Assembly (NCBI GenBank): GCA_963676915.2
Contig: CAXXVK010000011.1
Coordinates: 64,001 to 128,000 of the forward strand
Source of the DNA: Myxococcota bacterium
Lineage (GTDB): Bacteria; Myxococcota_A; SURF-8; G963663525
Direction of reading: 5' to 3'
Length of the DNA stretch: 64,000 bases
Shown here: piece after piece, positions 19,586-32,198 of the stretch
Layout of the letters: every line of letters begins with the position of its first letter
How positions within the stretch are numbered: position 1 is the stretch's first letter
Translations under genes and position numbers: made by a program
Notes under the pieces: model-generated
Seen by the model: only the letters and a program-made list of their open reading frames with translations
Database searches by the model: none
Told to the model about the DNA's origin: nothing

Positions 19586-21661
19586 TTACAGATCGTCATC
19601 CGTTTTTCTCTTTCTGTAACCTACGAGAAACAAAAGAATCGCTGCAAACAGGAACGACCCTGTAAGCCCTGACATTCGGCAGCCATCCGAGGTTTTCGAG
19701 GTTGTTCCTTCCGAATCCAGGTCGCCGCCGACCGCTTCATCGTCGGATGTCACTTGCGGAGCTACGGGAGGGCAGGCGGAGTTGTCCGCCGGGGTTTCCA
19801 TACCATCGGTGGGTTTGTCGCAGAAACCTTGAAGCTTTGCTTCCACTTGCAGATCGAAAGGTGGTTGGGTGGTATCCGTGGCTTTCAAAATGAGGGAAAC
19901 CTGAAACGTTCTGGCCGGGGCGTCATCGGCGAAAAGCTCGTCGCGGTCAGGATTTTCCACGGTCAGACTGAAGCTGGTGGTGTCGCCATCGGTTTCGGGA
20001 GCGGATAGGGATTCGTCCGCATTTTGCCATTGCATCGTGGATAGGTCGAGCGCGGTGCTTTGGACTTCGCCGTCGGGATTGCCGGTTTCATCTACCGTAG
20101 CTGCTTCGATTTCCAGGACTCCGGTCCCGTGAAACGCTGCCGTTTCCAGTGTTACATCCAATCGATAGTAGGGGAAAATCATCTCCGGGGCCGGGTTGCT
20201 GTTGGCCGATCGCAGATCGATGGCGAAATCCATTCGGGAAAACGGCCCTGGCGCGGAAGGATGCAAAACGACGGTTTCGTCTTGGTAGTTCATCGAGTCG
20301 GTCCAGGCCGACATTCTAGGACGGTAAGGGAAGCCGAATTCCACGAAACGGGCTTTGTCGAAGGGGCTGGCGTTCGATTGCAGCACCGTGCCTACCATGT
20401 GGGGATTTTCGAACAGACGTTCCACAAGATCCTGAACGGAGAATTCCAGAACCTCTCCGACGATTTCCGGCATGGAGCGACCATAGGTGAAATCCCGGTC
20501 ATCGACGCCGTACAGGTGCTTGGTGGAGAGTCCTGTTTCCGGGTCGATACCGAAAACGGCCACGTCGTCCAGGCGTGTCCCACCGCTTTCGAATTCCACG
20601 GCGAGGTTATCCATCCATTTGTCGATGGTTTCGAGGTCTGGAACGATGTCCTGTCCGTCTTCGGTAACTTTCAAATACGAGGACCATTGCGCCAGTCCAC
20701 TCACTGCCCCCATGGAAATCTGACAGGGCATGGAACCGCCTACACCTTCTTTTCCGGTCATTCGCTGGCGATAGTTGGTGCTGCACTCGATGGAAACTTC
20801 TCCGTTTTCCACGATGATCGGATATTCATGGCCGAGGTTGTCGTACTCGGAAACACCGTATAGAGCGGCCAGAATCCCTTCGGAGGCGGACCCCAGGGAG
20901 GCGGCGTCGGTCATGTCCAGTAGAGACTCTGGATTCACTCCTGTGGCGTTTTCGTTCAATATGCCGGTCCAGTTCAGGTAATGGCTACCGTCGGAGTATT
21001 GGGAAATTTGTACTGCAAGTCCGAGATGCGGATTCTGATTTCCGAACGCGGTTTCGGCGTTTTCCTGTGATAGATATTCATCGTTTTCATATCCGTACAG
21101 CAGTGGATGAGCGAGGAAATCGGTAGGATAGCCATGGCGACCGTTGACGTTGAAAACCAATGCAGCTCCGGCACTGTCTACAAACGTGTGACGATTGTAG
21201 AGACTTCCGGAGGGATTTTCCCAGTCCGGGATGATGTATTCCATGTGGCCGCGCCAGTCCTCGACGGCGTGGGCGGCGTACCCGAAAGCCCACGAAATTT
21301 CATGGATATCTTTTGCATTGGCGATCAGGTGCCGGGACCAGGCGAAGTAGCGGTCCGGGTCGGTGTATCGTCCCCAGCATTCGTTGGAAATTCTGCCGTT
21401 GTCTCCTCCACAGGCGACCGTGCAGAACGAGGCCATGAATTCGTCGGAAAGAATATACCAGACGTCGGGACCATAGGAGCCGTGAACCAACAATCCCAGA
21501 TTGAACGCCTCTTTCCAGCGGTGGGAAATACGGTCGTGCCCATGAACGGTCAACGCGCTGTGCACACCCGGTCCCCAGCCCCAAGCGGGTTTCGAATCGT
21601 CGATAAGAAAAAACGACAACGTAACGAACAAAACCGAAAAAATGCGTAAAAATTGCTTCAT
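19586..21661 (-). CDS. Zn-dependent phospholipase C/P1-nuclease-like surface protein with MYXO-CTERM-like tail
   Basis: Signal peptide, then mature N-terminal WGPGVH, GSYGPD, GYAAHAVEDWRGH and H..D Zn ligands. C-terminal SDGC, hydrophobic helix and YRKRK. Confidence 0.75.
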   Translation of the reverse strand: MKQFLRIFSVLFVTLSFFLIDDSKPAWGWGPGVHSALTVHGHDRISHRWKEAFNLGLLVHGSYGPDVWYILSDEFMASFCTVACGGDNGRISNECWGRYTDPDRYFAWSRHLIANAKDIHEISWAFGYAAHAVEDWRGHMEYIIPDWENPSGSLYNRHTFVDSAGAALVFNVNGRHGYPTDFLAHPLLYGYENDEYLSQENAETAFGNQNPHLGLAVQISQYSDGSHYLNWTGILNENATGVNPESLLDMTDAASLGSASEGILAALYGVSEYDNLGHEYPIIVENGEVSIECSTNYRQRMTGKEGVGGSMPCQISMGAVSGLAQWSSYLKVTEDGQDIVPDLETIDKWMDNLAVEFESGGTRLDDVAVFGIDPETGLSTKHLYGVDDRDFTYGRSMPEIVGEVLEFSVQDLVERLFENPHMVGTVLQSNASPFDKARFVEFGFPYRPRMSAWTDSMNYQDETVVLHPSAPGPFSRMDFAIDLRSANSNPAPEMIFPYYRLDVTLETAAFHGTGVLEIEAATVDETGNPDGEVQSTALDLSTMQWQNADESLSAPETDGDTTSFSLTVENPDRDELFADDAPARTFQVSLILKATDTTQPPFDLQVEAKLQGFCDKPTDGMETPADNSACPPVAPQVTSDDEAVGGDLDSEGTTSKTSDGCRMSGLTGSFLFAAILLFLVGYRKRKTDDDL

Positions 21662-21746
21662 AGTGTCAACTCCCGAGAGGGGAAAGAACGGCTGTCGGTA
21701 GAATGTTTTCCATGCCGGTTCTCTATACCATGTTTCTTTAGACGAC

Positions 21747-21773
21747 AAAAGGCCCGTCGTCATGACGGGCCTT
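21747..21773 (-). terminator. Rho-independent terminator of dcw operon
   Basis: AAGGCCCGTC-N5-GACGGGCCTT hairpin with a short T run on the minus strand, just after ftsZ. Confidence 0.7.
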
Positions 21774-21804: not shown

Positions 21805-23160
21805 TTAGCGTTCCCGCTCGCGGAGGCGGATTTTCCGTCGTGCCGATTGAATGATGGCCTGGTCGTTGAAGATATCTTCTTCGTACAGGCTGTTGACGCG
21901 TGGCGTCTCGCGGCGCGGACGAGTTTCGCGGGGACGGATTTCACGCGGGGTGTCGGCACGGTCGAAGAAAGACGAAGGAAGCGACTGGGGCGGAGCCACC
22001 AGTTCTTCGTCGTCGGGCCTCGATTTCGGGGCATCGCCGCCCATCGGCAGGTCGTCCTCGAAAATTTCCACAGACGTGCTCGACGAGGCGCGAAGATCGT
22101 CGCCTACCTGCAGTTTCCGACGACGACGAGGAGAGCGTCGGCCACGCGTCGGAGTTTCCGAATCGTTGGCTTCGTCCGGGAAACCGGTTGCGATAACGGT
22201 AACTTGCACACTGTCTTCCATGCTGTCGTCCACCACGTATCCGAAGATAACCGAGGCTTGCGGATCGGCGCTTTGCTGAATGTAGGTAACGGCTTCGTCC
22301 ACTTCGGAGGCTCGAAGCTGGGTGGAACCGGTAACGTTGATGAGCACGCCGCGAGCACCCTCGATGGAGAGATCGTCGAGCAGCGGGGAGGAGATCGCCA
22401 TCCGGGCGGCGTCCATGGCGCGGTTGGTGCCACTGCCTAGACCGGTGCCCATGATCGCCATTCCCATGTTGGACATGATCGATTTCACGTCGGCGAAGTC
22501 CACGTTGACGTAGCCTGCCGTGGTGATGAGATCGGAGATGCCGCGCACCGCACCGACGAGAACGTTATCCGCTTCTTTGAAGGCTTCGACGAAGCCCAGG
22601 TTTCCGCCGTCGATATCCAAAAGTTTCTGGTTGGGAATCACGACCAGGGTATTGACGCAGGATTTGAGTTCCTTGACGCCTTCCAGTGCCGTGTTCATCC
22701 TTTTCTGACCTTCGAAATTGAACGGCTTGGTAACGACACCGACGGTCAGGATGCCCATGTCCATCGCTTTTTGTGCGATGACCGGGGCCGCGCCCGTGCC
22801 GGTTCCGCCGCCCATACCCGCCGTGACGAACAGCATGTCCACGCCTTGGATCATCTCTTCGATCACCGCCAGCGATTCTTCTGCCGCTTTCTGGCCGACT
22901 TTGGGATAACCGCCAGCGCCAAGGCCGCGTGTCAGCGATTCACCCAATTGGATCTGCAGGGCCACTTTCGAACGTTCCAGCGCCTGCACGTCGGTGTTGG
23001 CCACGATAAACGACACGTTTTTCACATCGGCTTCCATCATCGACGTAACCGCGTTGCTCCCGGCGCCGCCCGCACCCAGAACCGCCAGTTTCGCCGAGCG
23101 GAAGCTCAGTTCGTCCGCCATGTTGAATTTGATTTCGAAATCGTCTCTGCTTTCCGTCAT
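21805..23160 (-). CDS. ftsZ: Cell division protein FtsZ
   Basis: [39 protein letters not shown] (T7 loop) and VTVIATG. Start MTESRD after GGAGG. Confidence 0.97.
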
Positions 23161-23223
23161 TCTTTCCTCCTTTGGGCTCCCTGACCCGAAATTATCCGTA
23201 CATCGGAAATCAAACAAGTTCGT

Positions 23224-24283
23224 TCAGTTTTTTTCTTCCATTCCGGCTATGAACGGTCCGCCCACCGTCCACGTCGGAAAAACTGCAACATTCTTTTCAA
23301 CTCTTTGAATTTCTTTCAATTTCGCGAGAGGCTGGTTGATTCCCAGCAACGTCACGCGAACGTTGTCTCCGTTTTCACAGGCAATACGGCGACTCCGAAG
23401 ATTGGTGTTGTTCACCAGCGTCATCAGCAGGGCTTCCACCTGCTCCAGCGCATTTTCCCGTTGGGGACCGGAGCGAACCGTCAGACAAAGGGTTTCGCTT
23501 TGCTCCAAGGGGATTTTCCACGAGGAACTGCGCGATATCGCTTTGAAAAAGGCATTGCGGGGAGCTAGTCCGCCCGCTGCCGAAGCCGTGGATACCGCGA
23601 TGGAAGCTTTCTCGAAAACTTCCTCGGAGAGTTCGTCTGCCTGTTCCGCCTGATCTTCTTCCAAAAACAGGTCGCAGACGGTTTCGATCATCTGCGCCAT
23701 TTCGTCGTCGCATTTTTTGAAAATCGTATAGGTTCCCGCTTCAAGAACGCTTTCTTCGAGGTCGGCTCCCGTGATGCGAATCACGCCGTTGCAGGCGCTT
23801 TCCAACTCGTCGATGGCTTTATTCGCCGTTTCCTGCCGATCTTTTCCTTCGAAATCGAAAGGAAGTCCGACCACGGCTACGGTGGCGATACCCCGGCGTC
23901 TGGCCTCGGAGGCGATGACCGGCAGAGCACCGCTGGCGGTTTCACCGCCCAGACCGCCCACGAGGACGAGTTTTGCGCAATCCACGCAGTTTCAAACCCC
24001 ATCGTCTGCGGGAATCCCGAGCACACAACGCACCGTAGCGGCCATCGATACGTCCCCGGTTGACCGGCGTTCCCTGGCCGAACGGCAGACGGCTCAACGG
24101 TCGTAAATGGGAAGATTCCAACAGGTCGAGATCGGTGTCCAACGCCAGCAACGAGACTTGGTCCGGCAGGCGTTCGCGAACCTTTGCCAGAACGTTCAGA
24201 CCCGCTTCTCCGACCCCGAAAACACCGACCTGGCAGGCTTGTAGCCTTTGCTGGATGTCTTCTTTCATTTCATTTTTCAACAT
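23224..24283 (-). CDS. Divergent FtsZ/tubulin-like protein (split by one +1 frameshift at ~23971-23974)
   Basis: GVGEAGLNV, ALDTD, GGLGGETASG, LPFDFEG and VRVTLLG follow FtsZ motif order. Removing one base from the A4 run joins the two ORFs into 352 aa. Confidence 0.75.
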
Positions 24284-24313
24284 AATCAGATGCTCCTTGG
24301 CGGCGGTAAATTC

Positions 24314-25516
24314 TCAGGGTCCGAAAAATTTCGTGATTTTGTTCCAAAGGCTGCGTTTGCCGATTTTCGTGGCACCGTGTCGAGCGCCGTACATCACGAG
24401 TCCTACGCTCGTAGAAAACTTCGGCTTGGATACCATGTCCGTAAGTCCGGTGAATCCTTTGGGTTTCGCGACACGTACCGGCATATCGAACATTTCTTCG
24501 GCCAGCGTTTCGATGCCTTTGAGCGAGGTGCAGCCTCCCGTAAGGACCACTCCCGCTCCGATGTAGCCTGCCATGCCGGAGGCTTCGATGTTGCTGATGA
24601 TGGCCGAAAAAATCTCTTCCATGCGCGCTTCGATGATGTCGCATAACGCCATACGGCTGATCAGGTGACTGGCCCCCACGCCGACCCTTGGAACGTCCAC
24701 GGTGTCGGTGTTGTTGACCAACTCGGCCAGGGCGCAGCCTTCGTGTTCCTTGATGCGTTCGGCGTCTTCGGGTGGTGTGCGCAGGCTGACGGCGATGTCG
24801 TTGGAAATCATGTCCCCGCCGGAAGCGATGACTCCGGCATGGAGAAGCGCGCCCTTGGAGTAAATCAGGATGTCCGAGGTTCCCGCGCCGATATCCACGA
24901 AGATGCAGCCCAGGTCTTTTTCCGGAGGCGTCAACGTGGCGTAGGAAGCGGCCAGCGGATCGAAAATCATATCGCAGACATTCACCCCGGCCTTGTTGCA
25001 GCAGCGCTCGATATTCTGCATGGCGGTCGCGGCGGCGGTGATGATGTGAACCTGAGTTTTCAGCCGCACGCCGCTGATGCCCAGTGGCACTTTGACTCCG
25101 GCCTGGTCGTCCACGATGTATTCCTGGACTTTGGTGTGGAGAACTTTGCGGTCCATGGGGATCGGCACGGCATTGGCCTGTTCCAATACGCGGTCGATGT
25201 CGCTCTGTTCGATTTCCTTGCCTTTGATGGGCACGACGCCATCGCTGTTTTCACCCTTGATATGCGGGCCGCTGATACCGACGAAAACGTCCGAAATCTG
25301 TACCCCGGCCATCAGTTCGGCGTCTTCCACCGAACTGCGGATGGAATGCACCGTTTCCTCGATGTTCGTGATGCTTCCACTGGACATACCCGAGGATTTC
25401 TGCGTTCCCACGCCGATGACTTCAACTTCGCCGTCTTCTTTTACTTCGCTGGCAATACAGCGGGTATCGGATGTTCCGATATCGAGACTGGCGATGATTT
25501 CTCCTTTTTTGGCCAT
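24314..25516 (-). CDS. ftsA: Cell division protein FtsA
   Basis: MAKKGEIIASLDIGTS, VDIGAGTSD, IEARMEEIF, GVVLTGG and STSVGL motifs. Confidence 0.96.
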   Translation of the reverse strand: MAKKGEIIASLDIGTSDTRCIASEVKEDGEVEVIGVGTQKSSGMSSGSITNIEETVHSIRSSVEDAELMAGVQISDVFVGISGPHIKGENSDGVVPIKGKEIEQSDIDRVLEQANAVPIPMDRKVLHTKVQEYIVDDQAGVKVPLGISGVRLKTQVHIITAAATAMQNIERCCNKAGVNVCDMIFDPLAASYATLTPPEKDLGCIFVDIGAGTSDILIYSKGALLHAGVIASGGDMISNDIAVSLRTPPEDAERIKEHEGCALAELVNNTDTVDVPRVGVGASHLISRMALCDIIEARMEEIFSAIISNIEASGMAGYIGAGVVLTGGCTSLKGIETLAEEMFDMPVRVAKPKGFTGLTDMVSKPKFSTSVGLVMYGARHGATKIGKRSLWNKITKFFGP

Positions 25517-25518
25517 GG

Positions 25519-26434
25519 TTACCTTCCCATCTCCTCTTGTCCGAAATCCTCGGGCTTCGGAGCCTGGAACCGTATGGAGATTTTTTCCGAATGGTTTCTG
25601 TTGTTCAAGTTGATGCGGAGCGGCTTGCGTTCTCCCTGGAAAAGGTCCGTCCAGTTTTTCCTGAAGACGGTCGAGTTTGCGTTGCCAGTTGTCGTCCCCG
25701 ACGATCACTTTGGTGGGGATCGATCCGACGAGCAGTGCAAATCCCGTCGTTTCCAGAATCACTTCGTGCAGGTCGGCTCTTTTCGACAAAGGATGCTCAC
25801 GATAAAGCCGAATCAGGTCGAAAGCGTTCGTAACGTTCTCGCTTACCTTTTTCTTTTCTTCTTCTTTGGCGTTGTTTTTATTCTTTTGGTTTTCTTTTTG
25901 ATCTTTCGTCTCGAAATCCGCCGGTTTCAACCCACGGATCAAGGTGTATTCGTCAATGGAATCCAAATCGGCGAGTTTGAAAGGTTCGAGGTCGGTATTG
26001 AGATACACGTAGGCTCCCAGGTCAACCACGGCCACGACCTTTTGTTCGGTGACGGCGATGGTCAGCGAACGGTTCAGCCAGTTTCGCGTAATGTCGGCCT
26101 GTGCCACCCACGGAAGTTTCTCGACCTTTCGGGCGGCGGGTTTGGTGTCCATCCCGACGAGATCCATTCCCTGGGTTATTCCCGATTGGAAGATCACAGC
26201 ATCATTGGGAGTTTTTTCACTGCCGGTGACATGGATTTGTTGGAGTTCGATCAGTCCGAACGACGAAACCGGAACGATTCCTTCCCAGGCCAGTGCGGCA
26301 TAGACGAAGACGGACGCCAGGATCACGGTTCCCAGGATTTTTCCGATGTTTCGCGAGGGTGGCGCGACTTCATTCGGATGTTCCAGCTTCCGGTTTTTTC
26401 TCAGCAGAATGTTTGCCGTTCTCTGCGGAGCCAT
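25519..26434 (-). CDS. ftsQ: Cell division protein FtsQ (apparent in-frame fusion to FtsA caused by +1 base at ~25655-25659)
   Basis: TM helix and POTRA domain (LPWVAQADITRNW). Removing one A gives ...LRINLNNRNHSEKISIRF...EEMGR* ending 2 nt before the ftsA ATG. Confidence 0.85.
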
Positions 26435-27409: not shown

Positions 27410-28806
27410 GGCGCTTTCCCTTCTTTTTCCTTCAGCATCGAAAGAACGTCCAGTCCCGTCCGGTGGATATCTCCCGGCCACCAAGGGTCAACAGCAGTTC
27501 ACCCGGATCCCAGCGTTTCCACGGCCCGGCGTCCGGCCTTGTCCCGGTCGCCCACGTATTCGACCTGAACGCCCCTGATTCTTGATTCGCTCGACGAGCG
27601 TCTGGCTGTCGATTCCTTCGATGGGCGGTTCGCTGGCCGCGTAAATATCCGTAACGATCAACCGATCGACGTTTTCGAAAGACTGGGCGAATTCGTCCAT
27701 CAGGTCGCGGGTTCGTGTGTAGCGGTGTGGCTGGAACAGCACCGTAATCGCCCCGTCGAAGCATTCTCTTGCAGCTTTAAGGGTGGCGCGAATTTCCGAG
27801 GGATGGTGCCCATAGTCGTCCACGACCGTTACACCGCCAGCTCGACCCTTGATCTGGAACCGGCGTTCCACACCATCGAAAGTTGCGAGGGCTTCGGTCA
27901 GAGTCGCCACGGGAATGTCCAGTTCGAATCCCACGATAAAAGCCGCCAGGGCGTTCAATACGTTGTGGTGTCCCGGTAAGGGAACCTGTACACGGCCAAG
28001 TTCCTTGTCGCCGTATACGATGTCGAATTCCATGCAGAGATTCCGGGCGCGAATGCGGGTGGCGCGGAAATCGTTTGCCTTCTTCGAGGCCGTAGGTAAC
28101 GTTTCGACCCTTGATACGTCCGCTGATTTCCCGGACGATCGGATCGTCTCCGCATAATACGTTCACGCCGTAAAATGGAATGCTGCTTGCGAAACTGACG
28201 AAGGCGTCTTTCTAACGCGTCGAAAGAGCCATAATAATCCAGGTGTTCTCTGTCGATGTTGGTGACGACGGTCAGCATTGGTGTGAGTCGCAGGAAACTG
28301 CCGTCCGACTCGTCGGCTTCGGCGACCAGCATCGAACCTTCACCCAGGCGGGCATTGGTGGCCGTAGCTCGTCAGTCGTCCTCCCACGAAAAAGGTGGGG
28401 GTCCATTCCGGCGGCGGAAAGCAGCCAGGCGATCAAGCTGGTGGTAGTGGTTTTGCCGTGCGATCCTGCCACGGCGATACCTTCCTTGAGGCGCATCAGT
28501 TCGGCCAGCATCTGGGCTCGCGGAATCACGGGGATTCCCCCGGCGGATGGGCCTCGGCCAGTTCGGGGTTGTCCGAACGGAATGGCCGAAGAACAGACCA
28601 ACACGTTGGCGTCGCCAAGGTTTGACGAATCGTGCTTGAAATTGTAGCCGAACGCCGAGTTGCTCCAGTCGTTTCGTGTAGCGCGACTTTTTGAGGTCGG
28701 ACCCCGAAACCTTGAACCGCAATCCCGTAAGCACTTCGGCCAGTCCGCACATGCCGACTCCGCCGATGCCTACGAAATGCACGTTTTTGAAGCGTTTTAG
28801 CAACAT
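27406..28806 (-). CDS. murC: UDP-N-acetylmuramate--L-alanine ligase (multiple frameshifts)
   Basis: Fragments in order: [63 protein letters not shown]. Stop overlaps the ddl start. Confidence 0.9.
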
Positions 28807-28862: not shown

Positions 28863-29952
28863 TTATTTTCGCACCGATTCTTCAAGCAATTGAGTCACGT
28901 TCGCGGCAGCCTTGGGATGGGCGGCGCTTTGGACCCGTCCCGACATGTTCGCGATTTCTTCCGGATTTTCGATTCGTTCTCGTAAAAAACGCACCAATTC
29001 GGTCGCGTCGATATCCTTTTGCTCCCGTACCCAGGCCGCACCGGCTTCAACCAGTTCCGCTGCGTTGTGTACCTGATGGTTGTCCGCTGCGCCCGGAAAC
29101 GGGATCAGCAGGCTGGGACGTCCCGCGACCGCCAGTTCCGCACAGGTCGCCGCACCGGAACGCGCCACGACAAGGTGACACCACTTCAAAGCACCGGCCA
29201 TGTCATCGATAAATGCCACCGCTTCGGCGTTCAACCCGGTTTCACGGTATCGTTCGGCGACGGCTTCAAGGTCGTGTTGTCCGGTCTGGTGGCGGATCGT
29301 CAAGCGGTCTTTCATCGGTTTCAGGTCCGGGGCGGCGTCTCGAAACAGGTTGTTGATGAACGTTGCACCCTGGCTTCCACCGAGGATCAGAACCTGCAAA
29401 GGTTCTGAAATTTCACGAGTTTCCTGAGAGTCGGAGAGGAACTGGTCCAAAAACTCCTGGCGCACCGGATTGCCGGTGAGGACGGTTTTTTTTCGCATCG
29501 AACCAGCGCGCTGCGTGGCCGAAAGATACCGCCACTTTTTTGGCGAAACGACCGAGTTGGCGGTTGGTCATGCCCGGTACCGAGTTGGGTTCCAGCAGCA
29601 CCAGCGGTTTTCTCAGAAACCAGGCGGCCAGACAGACCGGCCCCGCGGCAAAACTTCCCAGGCTGAGCACGACATCGGGACGGAAACGGAGGACGATCCA
29701 CAGTCCTTGCAAAAACGCCAGAGGAAGACGCAGCAGCGAAAGCAGCGTTTTGAACAGTCCGACGCGCTTCAGACCGCTGGCCGCCGTGTATTTCACCGGA
29801 AGGTTCTGTTCGGGCAGAATGCGCGATTCGATGCCGTCGCGAGTACCGACGAACAGCACTTCATTGCCTTCCTTTTTCAGCCATTGTTTGGCTACGGCAA
29901 TCCCCGGGAAAAGATGGCCACCGGTTTTTCCACCAGCCAGCAACAGTCTCAT
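28863..29952 (-). CDS. murG: Lipid II GlcNAc transferase MurG (one +1 frameshift in A8 run at 29486-29493)
   Basis: AGGKTGGHLFPG, EPNSVPG, TGNPVR, GGSQGA, FIDDM, RSGAATCAEL and HQVHNA motifs. Confidence 0.92.
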
Positions 29953-31105: not shown

Positions 31106-32198
31106 CTAGAGGTTGAATTTCAGCTTCAGGCTCGCAAGGCCGACAATGGCCAAGATGATCGAGATAATCCAAAGCCTCACCACAACCTTGGGCTCCGCCC
31201 AGCCCTTCAATTCAAGACTGTGGTGAAATGGGGCCATTCTAAAAATACGTTTGCCCGTCAATTTGAAACTTCCAACTTGCAAAACCACGGAAATCACTTC
31301 GAAAACGAAAATTCCACCGACAACCACCATCAACAGTTCCTGCTTGGTCAAAAAAGCCAGAACGCCCAAAGCCGAACCGATAGTCAGGCTACCTACATCC
31401 CCCATAAAAACCTGTGCGGGGTAGGTGTTGTACCAGAGAAAAGCCAGGCAGGCACCGAAGAGTGCCCCGGCGAACACGGCTAGCTCGCCAGCGCCCGGAA
31501 CGTAAACCACGTTGAGGAACTGAGCGAACTTGATGTTACCTGCCAAATACGCGAGAATCATGAATACGATCGTGGTGGCCATGGCCGGTCCCCAAAGCCA
31601 GACCGTCAAGGCCGTCCGTGAGGTTTACGGCGTTGGCCGTTCCGGCGATGACAATGGCCGCAAACGGGACATACATCCACAATGGTATGTTAGTAATCGG
31701 ATTCCAGACGAACGGCACCTGGAGATCGTTGGCGAAGTCGGTCAGGGTAAACAGCAGCAGTGCGGCGACGGCGGTAATCAGCAACTCCAGTCCCAGGCGC
31801 AGTTTGCCCGAGATTCCCTTGGAGTTGTTTTTCGAGACTTTCATCCAGTCGTCCCACAGACCCAACACGCCGAACGAACCTGTGACCAGCATAGCGATCC
31901 AGGTGTAGGCATTGTCCAACCGTGCCCAGAGAAACGTAGAGCACAGCAAGGAAGCCAGGATCAACGTTCCGCCCATTGTCGGGGTTCCGGCTTTGGAAAG
32001 ATGAGACTGCGGGCCGTCGTCTCGAATGGCCTGCCCGTACTGTCGGCGCTTCAGGTCGCGAATCATCACCGGGGAAAGCAGGAATGTAATCAACAACGCC
32101 GTCAGTGCTCCGCCAGCCGTGCGAACCGTAATATACTGGAAGACGCGAAGCGCCGTTTCATCCCCACCGAACAGTTGATATAGAATATGGTAAAGCAT
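31106..32198 (-). CDS. mraY: Phospho-N-acetylmuramoyl-pentapeptide transferase (one +1 frameshift at ~31590-31593)
   Basis: [33 protein letters not shown] and FRMAPFHH motifs. Confidence 0.93.

Follow-up and report, generated by a model that had tools for sequence, protein, structure and literature searches.

A motif-degenerate FtsZ paralog between ftsA and ftsZ in a genus of Myxococcota, a candidate non-catalytic modulator of FtsZ assembly

A 64,000-nucleotide stretch of a Myxococcota bacterium genome (contig 11 of the assembly here called G000, CAXXVK010000011.1, positions 64001-128000; hereafter the window, in whose coordinates all positions are given) carries on its minus strand, inside the dcw operon (genes for dividing the cell and building its wall), two open reading frames (ORFs) between ftsA and ftsZ. 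Judged from their sequence, these frames, ORF-A and ORF-B, are the two parts of one FtsZ-like gene of 352 codons that is broken by one surplus base. The gene is under purifying selection and thus kept. Because the glycines of its T1 and T4 loops and its T7 loop are altered or lost, the encoded paralog would neither hydrolyse GTP nor activate hydrolysis in a neighbouring subunit, and probably binds no nucleotide. It seems to be produced along with FtsZ as a regulator without enzyme activity, and not as a second ring-builder, and the explanation favoured here, which is given about an even chance of being correct, is that of a non-catalytic, genus-restricted FtsZ paralog in the dcw operon that modulates FtsZ assembly.

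In the deposited assembly, the minus-strand order is ddl, ftsQ and ftsA as one 706-aa ORF, ORF-A, ORF-B, and ftsZ. ORF-A (24283-23942, 113 aa) is the upstream piece of the FtsZ-like gene and ORF-B (23985-23224, 253 aa) the downstream piece, and the two share 44 nt, which they read in different frames. An earlier note on this DNA had proposed that the removal of one base restores a 352-aa ORF, and this holds: dropping one A from the AAAA of the coding strand (TTTT on the plus strand, 23971-23974), where one base is in excess, gives 352 codons, of which codons 1-104 (23972-24283, including helix H0) stand in the frame of ORF-A and codons 105-352 with the stop (23224-23970) include the FtsZ-type C-terminal domain. 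The AAGGAG ribosome-binding site that the note had assigned to the gene is also there, as read from the sequence; it occupies 24298-24293, 9 nt upstream of the start codon (ATG, 24283), and the start MLKNEMKE is the one chosen as well in the gene calls for two proteins, P0331 and P0330. P0331 is a 352-aa protein from a third assembly, where a contig of 90,399 nt encodes it; it clusters at 90% with both window pieces and crosses the junction exactly as the window does with one A less. It differs from the window in 17 of 352 residues (95% identity), 102 of the first 104 residues being identical. In a congener (G001), an ORF of 353 aa (67-74% identity) stands uninterrupted at the same place, so that the order ftsA, FtsZ-like gene, ftsZ, which the note had suggested looking for in relatives, is kept there. 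In the DNA alignment of both genes, the window shows a single +1 difference, in the coding-strand AAAA, plus one 3-base gap downstream. In addition, a contig of 10,864 nt, which belongs to a different study, spans 23000-24500 with 94% identity, 88 substitutions, and a single gap, namely one T fewer at 23971. A switch of frame further upstream, with an in-frame TGA, was also considered and rejected, since both intact orthologs keep the frame of ORF-A up to the A-run.

The surplus base is very probably an artefact of the assembly. When 16 genes of the window were aligned with 80 kb of the congener for frame-breaking insertions, six of them showed +1 insertions in the window: one each in the paralog, ftsQ (25655-25659, T5), murG (29487-29494, T8), and mraY (31590-31593, C4), two in ddl (27315 and 27344), and about ten in murC (within 27478-28644). 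No frame-breaking insertions were found in ftsA, ftsW, and five more of the 16 genes, and in ftsZ, o159, and o149 the gaps that are not multiples of three either sum to a multiple of three or sit 5' of the start codon. All five of the +1 sites that were inspected are homopolymers (T4, T5, C4, T8, and C4). The one-base insertions that separate the cell-wall genes from those of the congener are always extra bases in the window, and murC lies there in at least five pieces. Such dense +1 insertions point to poor consensus quality in this part of the assembly. Both mraY and murC are required for peptidoglycan synthesis, and no other close copy of either was found in the genome, the next matches being 29% identical. 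The frameshift is judged an artefact because genuine breaks in all of these genes would be implausible. The contigs of four public runs were also compared with positions 23000-24500 (run X3 reached 18 of 30 bins, and run X4 gave no contig there), and those of the run that contains 94% of the words of this stretch, and is probably its source (depth 2 to 2.9), stop at 23973 and resume at 23972, inside the TTTT, at depth 2. This break would fit a situation in which the few reads give different lengths for the run and no 31-mer across it is seen twice. Among the five runs listed for this stretch, none was of RNA.

Two other explanations of the frameshift have to be weighed. The first is that it is real and that the gene, intact in relatives, has recently become a pseudogene in this lineage, as would agree with the presence of the extra base in the deposited assembly and with the public gene calls for the window, which are split into two pieces of 113 aa and 245 aa. 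However, this seems very unlikely, given the like insertions in ftsQ, ddl, murC, murG, and mraY without a close spare copy of the last or of murC, the contig ends within the TTTT at a depth of 2, as if reads disagreed on its length, and a low ratio of nonsynonymous to synonymous substitution rates (dN/dS) in both halves of a gene with no further lesions. The earlier note had let its proposal depend in part on whether the frameshift is genuine; most likely it is not, and the break looks like an assembly error. The second explanation, programmed +1 ribosomal frameshifting on the A-run, would let the unaltered DNA of the assembly encode the full protein, and after a slip of one base downstream on AAAA a lysine tRNA could again pair perfectly, but it is hardly credible: the extra base occurs in neither relative, so the site is not conserved, neighbouring genes carry the same type of insertion, and no stimulatory element was noticed, none having been searched for. 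The apparent FtsQ-FtsA fusion (24314-26434), whose ftsQ part covers 25519-26434, is an artefact of a like kind: ftsQ and ftsA are separate in the congener, and the true C-terminus of FtsQ in the window lies in the other frame beyond the T5 insertion, where a TAA is found two bases before the ATG of ftsA. With a frameshift and a fusion that are artefactual, the annotation of this genome calls for care.

The note had taken the divergence of the gene for a sign of selection and not of decay, which is supported by the intact orthologs and by dN/dS values of 0.12-0.26. Between the window and the congener, the paralogs are 74% identical in amino acids over the 104 codons before the break (dN/dS 0.12) and 68% identical over the 248 codons after it (dN/dS 0.26), the neighbours being 94% identical, and dN/dS is 0.05 for each of ftsZ and ftsA. 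Relative to the 94% identical contig, 40 of 87 substitutions are listed, 39 of them in ORF-B, where codon positions 1, 2, and 3 take 11, 3, and 25, respectively; among the changed codons listed, 23 of 35 are synonymous and 12 are not.

The relationship of the paralog to FtsZ is clear at the level of sequence profiles. ORF-B alone matches Pfam Tubulin/FtsZ (PF00091) with an E-value of 7.7e-11 and 43.1 bits, and the full protein of the congener reaches 47.9 bits (cut-off 33). At E<=1, the congener protein matches no Pfam family besides PF00091, and neither FtsZ_C (PF12327) nor Tubulin_2 nor MORN is detected in it, although the region corresponding to FtsZ_C still aligns with the C-terminal domain of FtsZ and is modelled as such. 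The NCBIfam model for ftsZ itself, TIGR00065, has a cut-off of 295.2 bits, well above the 82 bits (E 4.9e-23) of the congener protein and the 69 bits of ORF-B. Identity between the paralog and FtsZ amounts to 22-25%. When 57 FtsZ rows were aligned, 48 columns were at least 85% conserved, of which the paralog keeps 35 and changes 13, mainly in T1, T2, T3, T4, and T6.

In FtsZ, the glycines of T1 and T4 bind the phosphates of the nucleotide, and the T7 loop of the next subunit activates hydrolysis. The motifs that the earlier note had listed, GVGEAGLNV (T1 loop, 24191-24217), DTD in place of NTD (24131-24139), GGLGGETASG (T4, 23929-23958), and PFDFEG (T5, 23845-23862), are all present on the minus strand. 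In T1, a glycine is replaced by glutamate (GVGEAG or GIGEAG); in T2, the asparagine is replaced by aspartate and, in the congener, the threonine also by alanine; T3 has three changes; T4 reads GGLGGETASG or GGLGGDTASG instead of GGGTGTG, with one glycine replaced by aspartate or glutamate and another by alanine; and in T6 the asparagine is replaced by glycine. The altered glycine columns of T1 and T4 are 93-100% glycine in the 57 FtsZ rows, and the GGGTG(T/S)G signature is absent. Among 331 gathered proteins, an aspartate or glutamate at the third T4 glycine occurs in this family (3 proteins) and in one other only. In the table of the 48 columns, two entries for T4 stem from the out-of-frame tail of ORF-A and are to be disregarded, as ORF-B has G at these columns. 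Moreover, where FtsZ has NVDFAD (T7), the window paralog has the acidic stretch EEDQAEQADELSEE (23620-23661), in agreement with the replacement that the note had described, and the NxDFxD loop is gone in all three orthologs, with an acidic, variable stretch in its place.

The note had stressed the loss of T7 alone; this loss stands, but degeneracy also extends to the GTP pocket of the paralog itself, and the protein is therefore unlikely to act as a tubulin subunit that binds GTP. The comparison with gamma- or alpha-tubulin made in the note is best taken as an analogy. The short tail claimed there was partly upheld: neither the linker of FtsZ nor a match to the FtsZ C-terminal consensus of the alignment was found in the paralog, but about 32 residues still follow the core (23227-23322). 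They are predicted to be disordered, and the last 20 or so are conserved between orthologs. In FtsZ, the C-terminal peptide is the part that binds FtsA, a membrane tether.

The state of these loops also bears on the possibility that the paralog is an active second FtsZ, which would bind and hydrolyse GTP and copolymerise like the truncated FtsZ1 of Agrobacterium tumefaciens. The complete fold, the retention of T5 PFDFEG and of several pocket glycines, and the strong conservation of the T4 region among orthologs would suit such a protein, and known bacterial duplicates stay active and copolymerise, according to the accessible text of PMC13732431. However, an active second FtsZ remains improbable, with acidic residues in place of glycines in both phosphate loops and with the T6 asparagine and NxDFxD lost; an archaeal FtsZ without these two motifs did not polymerise in yeast, as stated in the part of PMC3684127 that is available.

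The presence of an FtsZ/tubulin fold, on which the note had relied, is supported by modelling. The AlphaFold2 (AF2) model of the congener ortholog, the alignment behind which included 57 FtsZ sequences, has a predicted local distance difference test (pLDDT) score of 84.9 and a predicted template modelling (pTM) score of 0.82, with the two-domain architecture of FtsZ complete; among the matches listed by Foldseek in the PDB, 46 of 46 are FtsZ (E 1.3e-21 to 9.9e-20, target TM 0.53-0.79). The paralog, as modelled, has the two-domain FtsZ/tubulin fold. In the model, helix H7 continues as one long helix through the place of T7, and the tail is disordered from residue 320. Conservation among the three orthologs peaks at residues 81-120 (H3-S4-T4) and 241-260, and falls to its minimum at 201-220 (where FtsZ has T7) and at 321-340. 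The surfaces at both ends of the molecule also depart from FtsZ in their charge. The altered T3 loop and the arginine-rich H3 helix (23972-24079) bear a net charge of +8 in the congener protein and +11 in P0331, against a median of -1 in the 57 FtsZ rows, and the segment at the place of T7 bears -9 and -10, where FtsZ has a median of -1 and stays between -4 and +4.

On these grounds, conservation and charge, a speculative mechanism can be outlined. The basic and best-conserved top face of the paralog (T3-H3-T4) might dock where an FtsZ subunit or a filament end exposes its acidic T7 face; the bottom face of the paralog, strongly acidic and poorly conserved, would fail to recruit or activate a further subunit. 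The outcome would be filament-end capping or subunit sequestration, tuning the assembly and turnover of the Z-ring. A more specific form of this idea, in which the protein is a dedicated FtsZ end-capper, that is, a catalytically dead, nucleotide-free, and co-transcribed paralog that docks by its basic top face without GTP, is tentative and seems rather unlikely as it stands. In that case, the acidic bottom face lacking T7 would forbid growth and the paralog would set filament length and treadmilling, which could be likened to the division of labour among tubulin isotypes, with non-hydrolysing interfaces and an end control resembling that by gamma-tubulin.

Several points weigh against an FtsZ-modulating, nucleotide-free paralog. 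The verdict of an artefactual frameshift is indirect, being drawn from contigs, and the argument from conservation uses three orthologs, two of which are 95% identical. The T4 region is among the best-conserved parts of the protein, so that a ligand might still be bound. Both longitudinal faces are unlike those of FtsZ, and perhaps neither of them still fits FtsZ; with its basic top and acidic bottom, the protein could just as well assemble head-to-tail with itself, without FtsZ. Moreover, in a tree of 50 sequences with midpoint rooting, the paralog pair falls outside all 48 FtsZ, its branch measuring about 9 substitutions per site, and so long a branch points to neither tandem duplication nor transfer as the origin.

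Some of these features would suit a paralog that is functional without acting on FtsZ at all, either as a nucleotide-independent, self-assembling scaffold or as an adaptor to, for example, FtsA through its conserved C-terminal end. The departure of both longitudinal faces from FtsZ, the self-complementary charge dipole, and the conservation of the last 20 or so residues, though predicted to be disordered, agree with such a role, which is a minor but real possibility; nevertheless, the operon place directly before ftsZ and the retention of the whole FtsZ core suggest a role tied to FtsZ, as in the favoured interpretation of a modulator of FtsZ assembly. A complex prediction with the FtsZ core (residues 12-335) and the paralog (residues 1-322), both supplied as alignments and run without controls, gave a score of 0.00 in two runs, which speaks neither for nor against an interaction. 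As for other regulators of division, ZapA was found in all five genomes of the order that were searched (G000, G001, G003, G005, and G007), and MinC_C and SepF in none of these five; the pattern is equal in genomes with and without the paralog. Division-site control in this order must rely on other means than MinC and SepF.

As far as public data show, the paralog is restricted to this genus. A HMMER search of 1.84 billion representative proteins gave 7,862 matches at E<=0.001 and two only at E<=1e-30, namely the query and the window's own piece; likewise, no other close relative was found by a word-indexed search of 5.8 billion proteins. A search of genome contigs with the congener protein, from which the window's own genome or near ones may be missing, gave 150 pattern matches and none that was confirmed. 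Among the 41 genomes searched, the paralog is present in two, that of the window and that of the congener, and the other 39 gave FtsZ-level matches only, the best with an E-value of 8.5e-17 and 32% identity. Outside the genus, the spacing between ftsA and ftsZ is about 60-300 nt in all ten loci examined, which is too short for a gene. Within the whole genome under study, only ftsZ and ORF-B match Pfam Tubulin/FtsZ.

Three side observations were made in these searches. The best match to the paralog from outside its family (E 1.4e-22) is P0062, a 731-aa protein with two tandem FtsZ cores, both without NxDFxD; it might represent a further type of degenerate FtsZ. In G021, a genome from the same phylum, the paralog query matched at five distinct places, within open frames that are 258-659 aa long, which suggests an expansion of genes of the tubulin/FtsZ family there. 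Furthermore, a 37-nt piece of the T1 region (24195-24231) is also matched, with 6 differences, by unrelated contigs of greater length from two runs; these probably contain ftsZ of other organisms, the T1 region of which is conserved.

The neighbours of the paralog are division genes. The canonical ftsZ (21805-23160, minus strand) encodes 451 aa from the ATG at 23160, 63 nt after the stop of the paralog, and matches Pfam Tubulin (2e-47) and FtsZ_C (4.5e-31); this 451-aa form is P0210 in the protein collection and scores 400.5 bits with TIGR00065, over its cut-off. One named FtsZ match, 'Myxococcales bacterium', shows 53% identity, in agreement with a lineage that is probably in or near Myxococcota. 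Upstream, ftsA (24314-25516, minus strand), with matches to Pfam FtsA and SHS2_FTSA, ends 30 nt 5' of the ATG of the paralog and is 94% identical to the separate 401-codon ftsA frame of the congener. Immediately 3' of ftsZ lies an ORF of 725 aa (19586-21763, minus strand) with a hydrophobic C-terminal end, which has a conserved copy in the congener (about 70% identity, in a single frame, with no Pfam match at E<=1e-5) and may be part of the division operon.

A paralog that selection keeps inside the dcw operon, with its nucleotide signature and its catalytic loop both lost, would be a naturally occurring pseudo-enzyme of the tubulin superfamily in bacteria. Filament polarity and treadmilling have so far been probed by means of engineered interface mutants and small inhibitor proteins. 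If the paralog caps or sequesters FtsZ, both properties could be studied with a genetically encoded tool and in a natural experiment, and the protein would exemplify a cytoskeletal polymer subunit turned into its own regulator.

Compared with canonical FtsZ, the paralog shares the two-domain fold, sequence homology, the T5 motif PFxFEG, and the location in the dcw operon, whereas GGGTGTG, the T2 asparagine, T3, the T6 asparagine, and T7 are altered or lost, the linker and C-terminal peptide are absent, and the top and bottom segments are reversed in charge. The FtsZ-like domain of ARC3 is not known to have GTPase activity. ARC3 is a eukaryotic protein composed of an FtsZ-like domain, a middle domain, and MORN, whereas the paralog has 352-353 residues, consisting of a core and a short tail. 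This plant chloroplast protein, with its FtsZ-derived domain, directly inhibits Z-ring assembly, and it shows that a derived FtsZ domain is able to serve as a regulator (10.1101/2024.01.08.574726, as far as its available text goes).

In the domain Archaea, the closest parallel is Nmar_1262 of Nitrosopumilus maritimus, which is described in the accessible portion of PMC3684127 as a protein of about 340 aa with a Tubulin domain but with no GTP-binding motif and no NVDFAD, and which failed to polymerise in yeast. It differs from the paralog in being the sole FtsZ homolog of an archaeon that divides by Cdv, whereas the paralog is a second copy beside a canonical bacterial FtsZ. The look-alike clusters that a protein language model gives for the paralog are Nitrososphaerota proteins with scores of 0.94-0.95, which express likeness of features and serve as a lead only; the resemblance between the paralog and the thaumarchaeal proteins is likely a case of convergence.

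Among bacteria, FtsZ has been duplicated independently at least five times, the copies lying outside the dcw operon and being mostly truncated, and in the duplicates of Hyphomicrobiales the catalytic regions that bind GTP are conserved; over-production of FtsZ1 in A. tumefaciens blocks division, an effect that needs its enzymatic activity (PMC13732431, in the text available). That extra bacterial copies of FtsZ sit outside the dcw cluster is also stated in the available part of PMC9871819. The paralog resembles FtsZ1 and FtsZ3 of A. tumefaciens in being an extra copy without the C-terminal parts and a proposed tuner of division, whereas it lies between ftsA and ftsZ with a degenerate site and proteins of the FtsZ1 type are encoded outside dcw and keep theirs (PMC13732431, same portion). 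In the literature searched, in which subscription journals and supplements were not covered, no bacterial FtsZ with dead motifs between ftsA and ftsZ was found. The families FtsZl-1 and FtsZl-2, introduced by Makarova and Koonin in 2010 according to the available text of PMC2875224, contain Tubulin_2 (PF13809) and no domain of the FtsZ_C type, and are found in other gene contexts (PMC9871819, likewise in part). Like these proteins, which occur in scattered bacteria, the paralog is a divergent member of the FtsZ/tubulin superfamily, but at E<=1 it matches Tubulin (PF00091) and not Tubulin_2. FtsZ paralogs as such are already known, and a motif-degenerate copy embedded in the dcw operon is a new variety of them.

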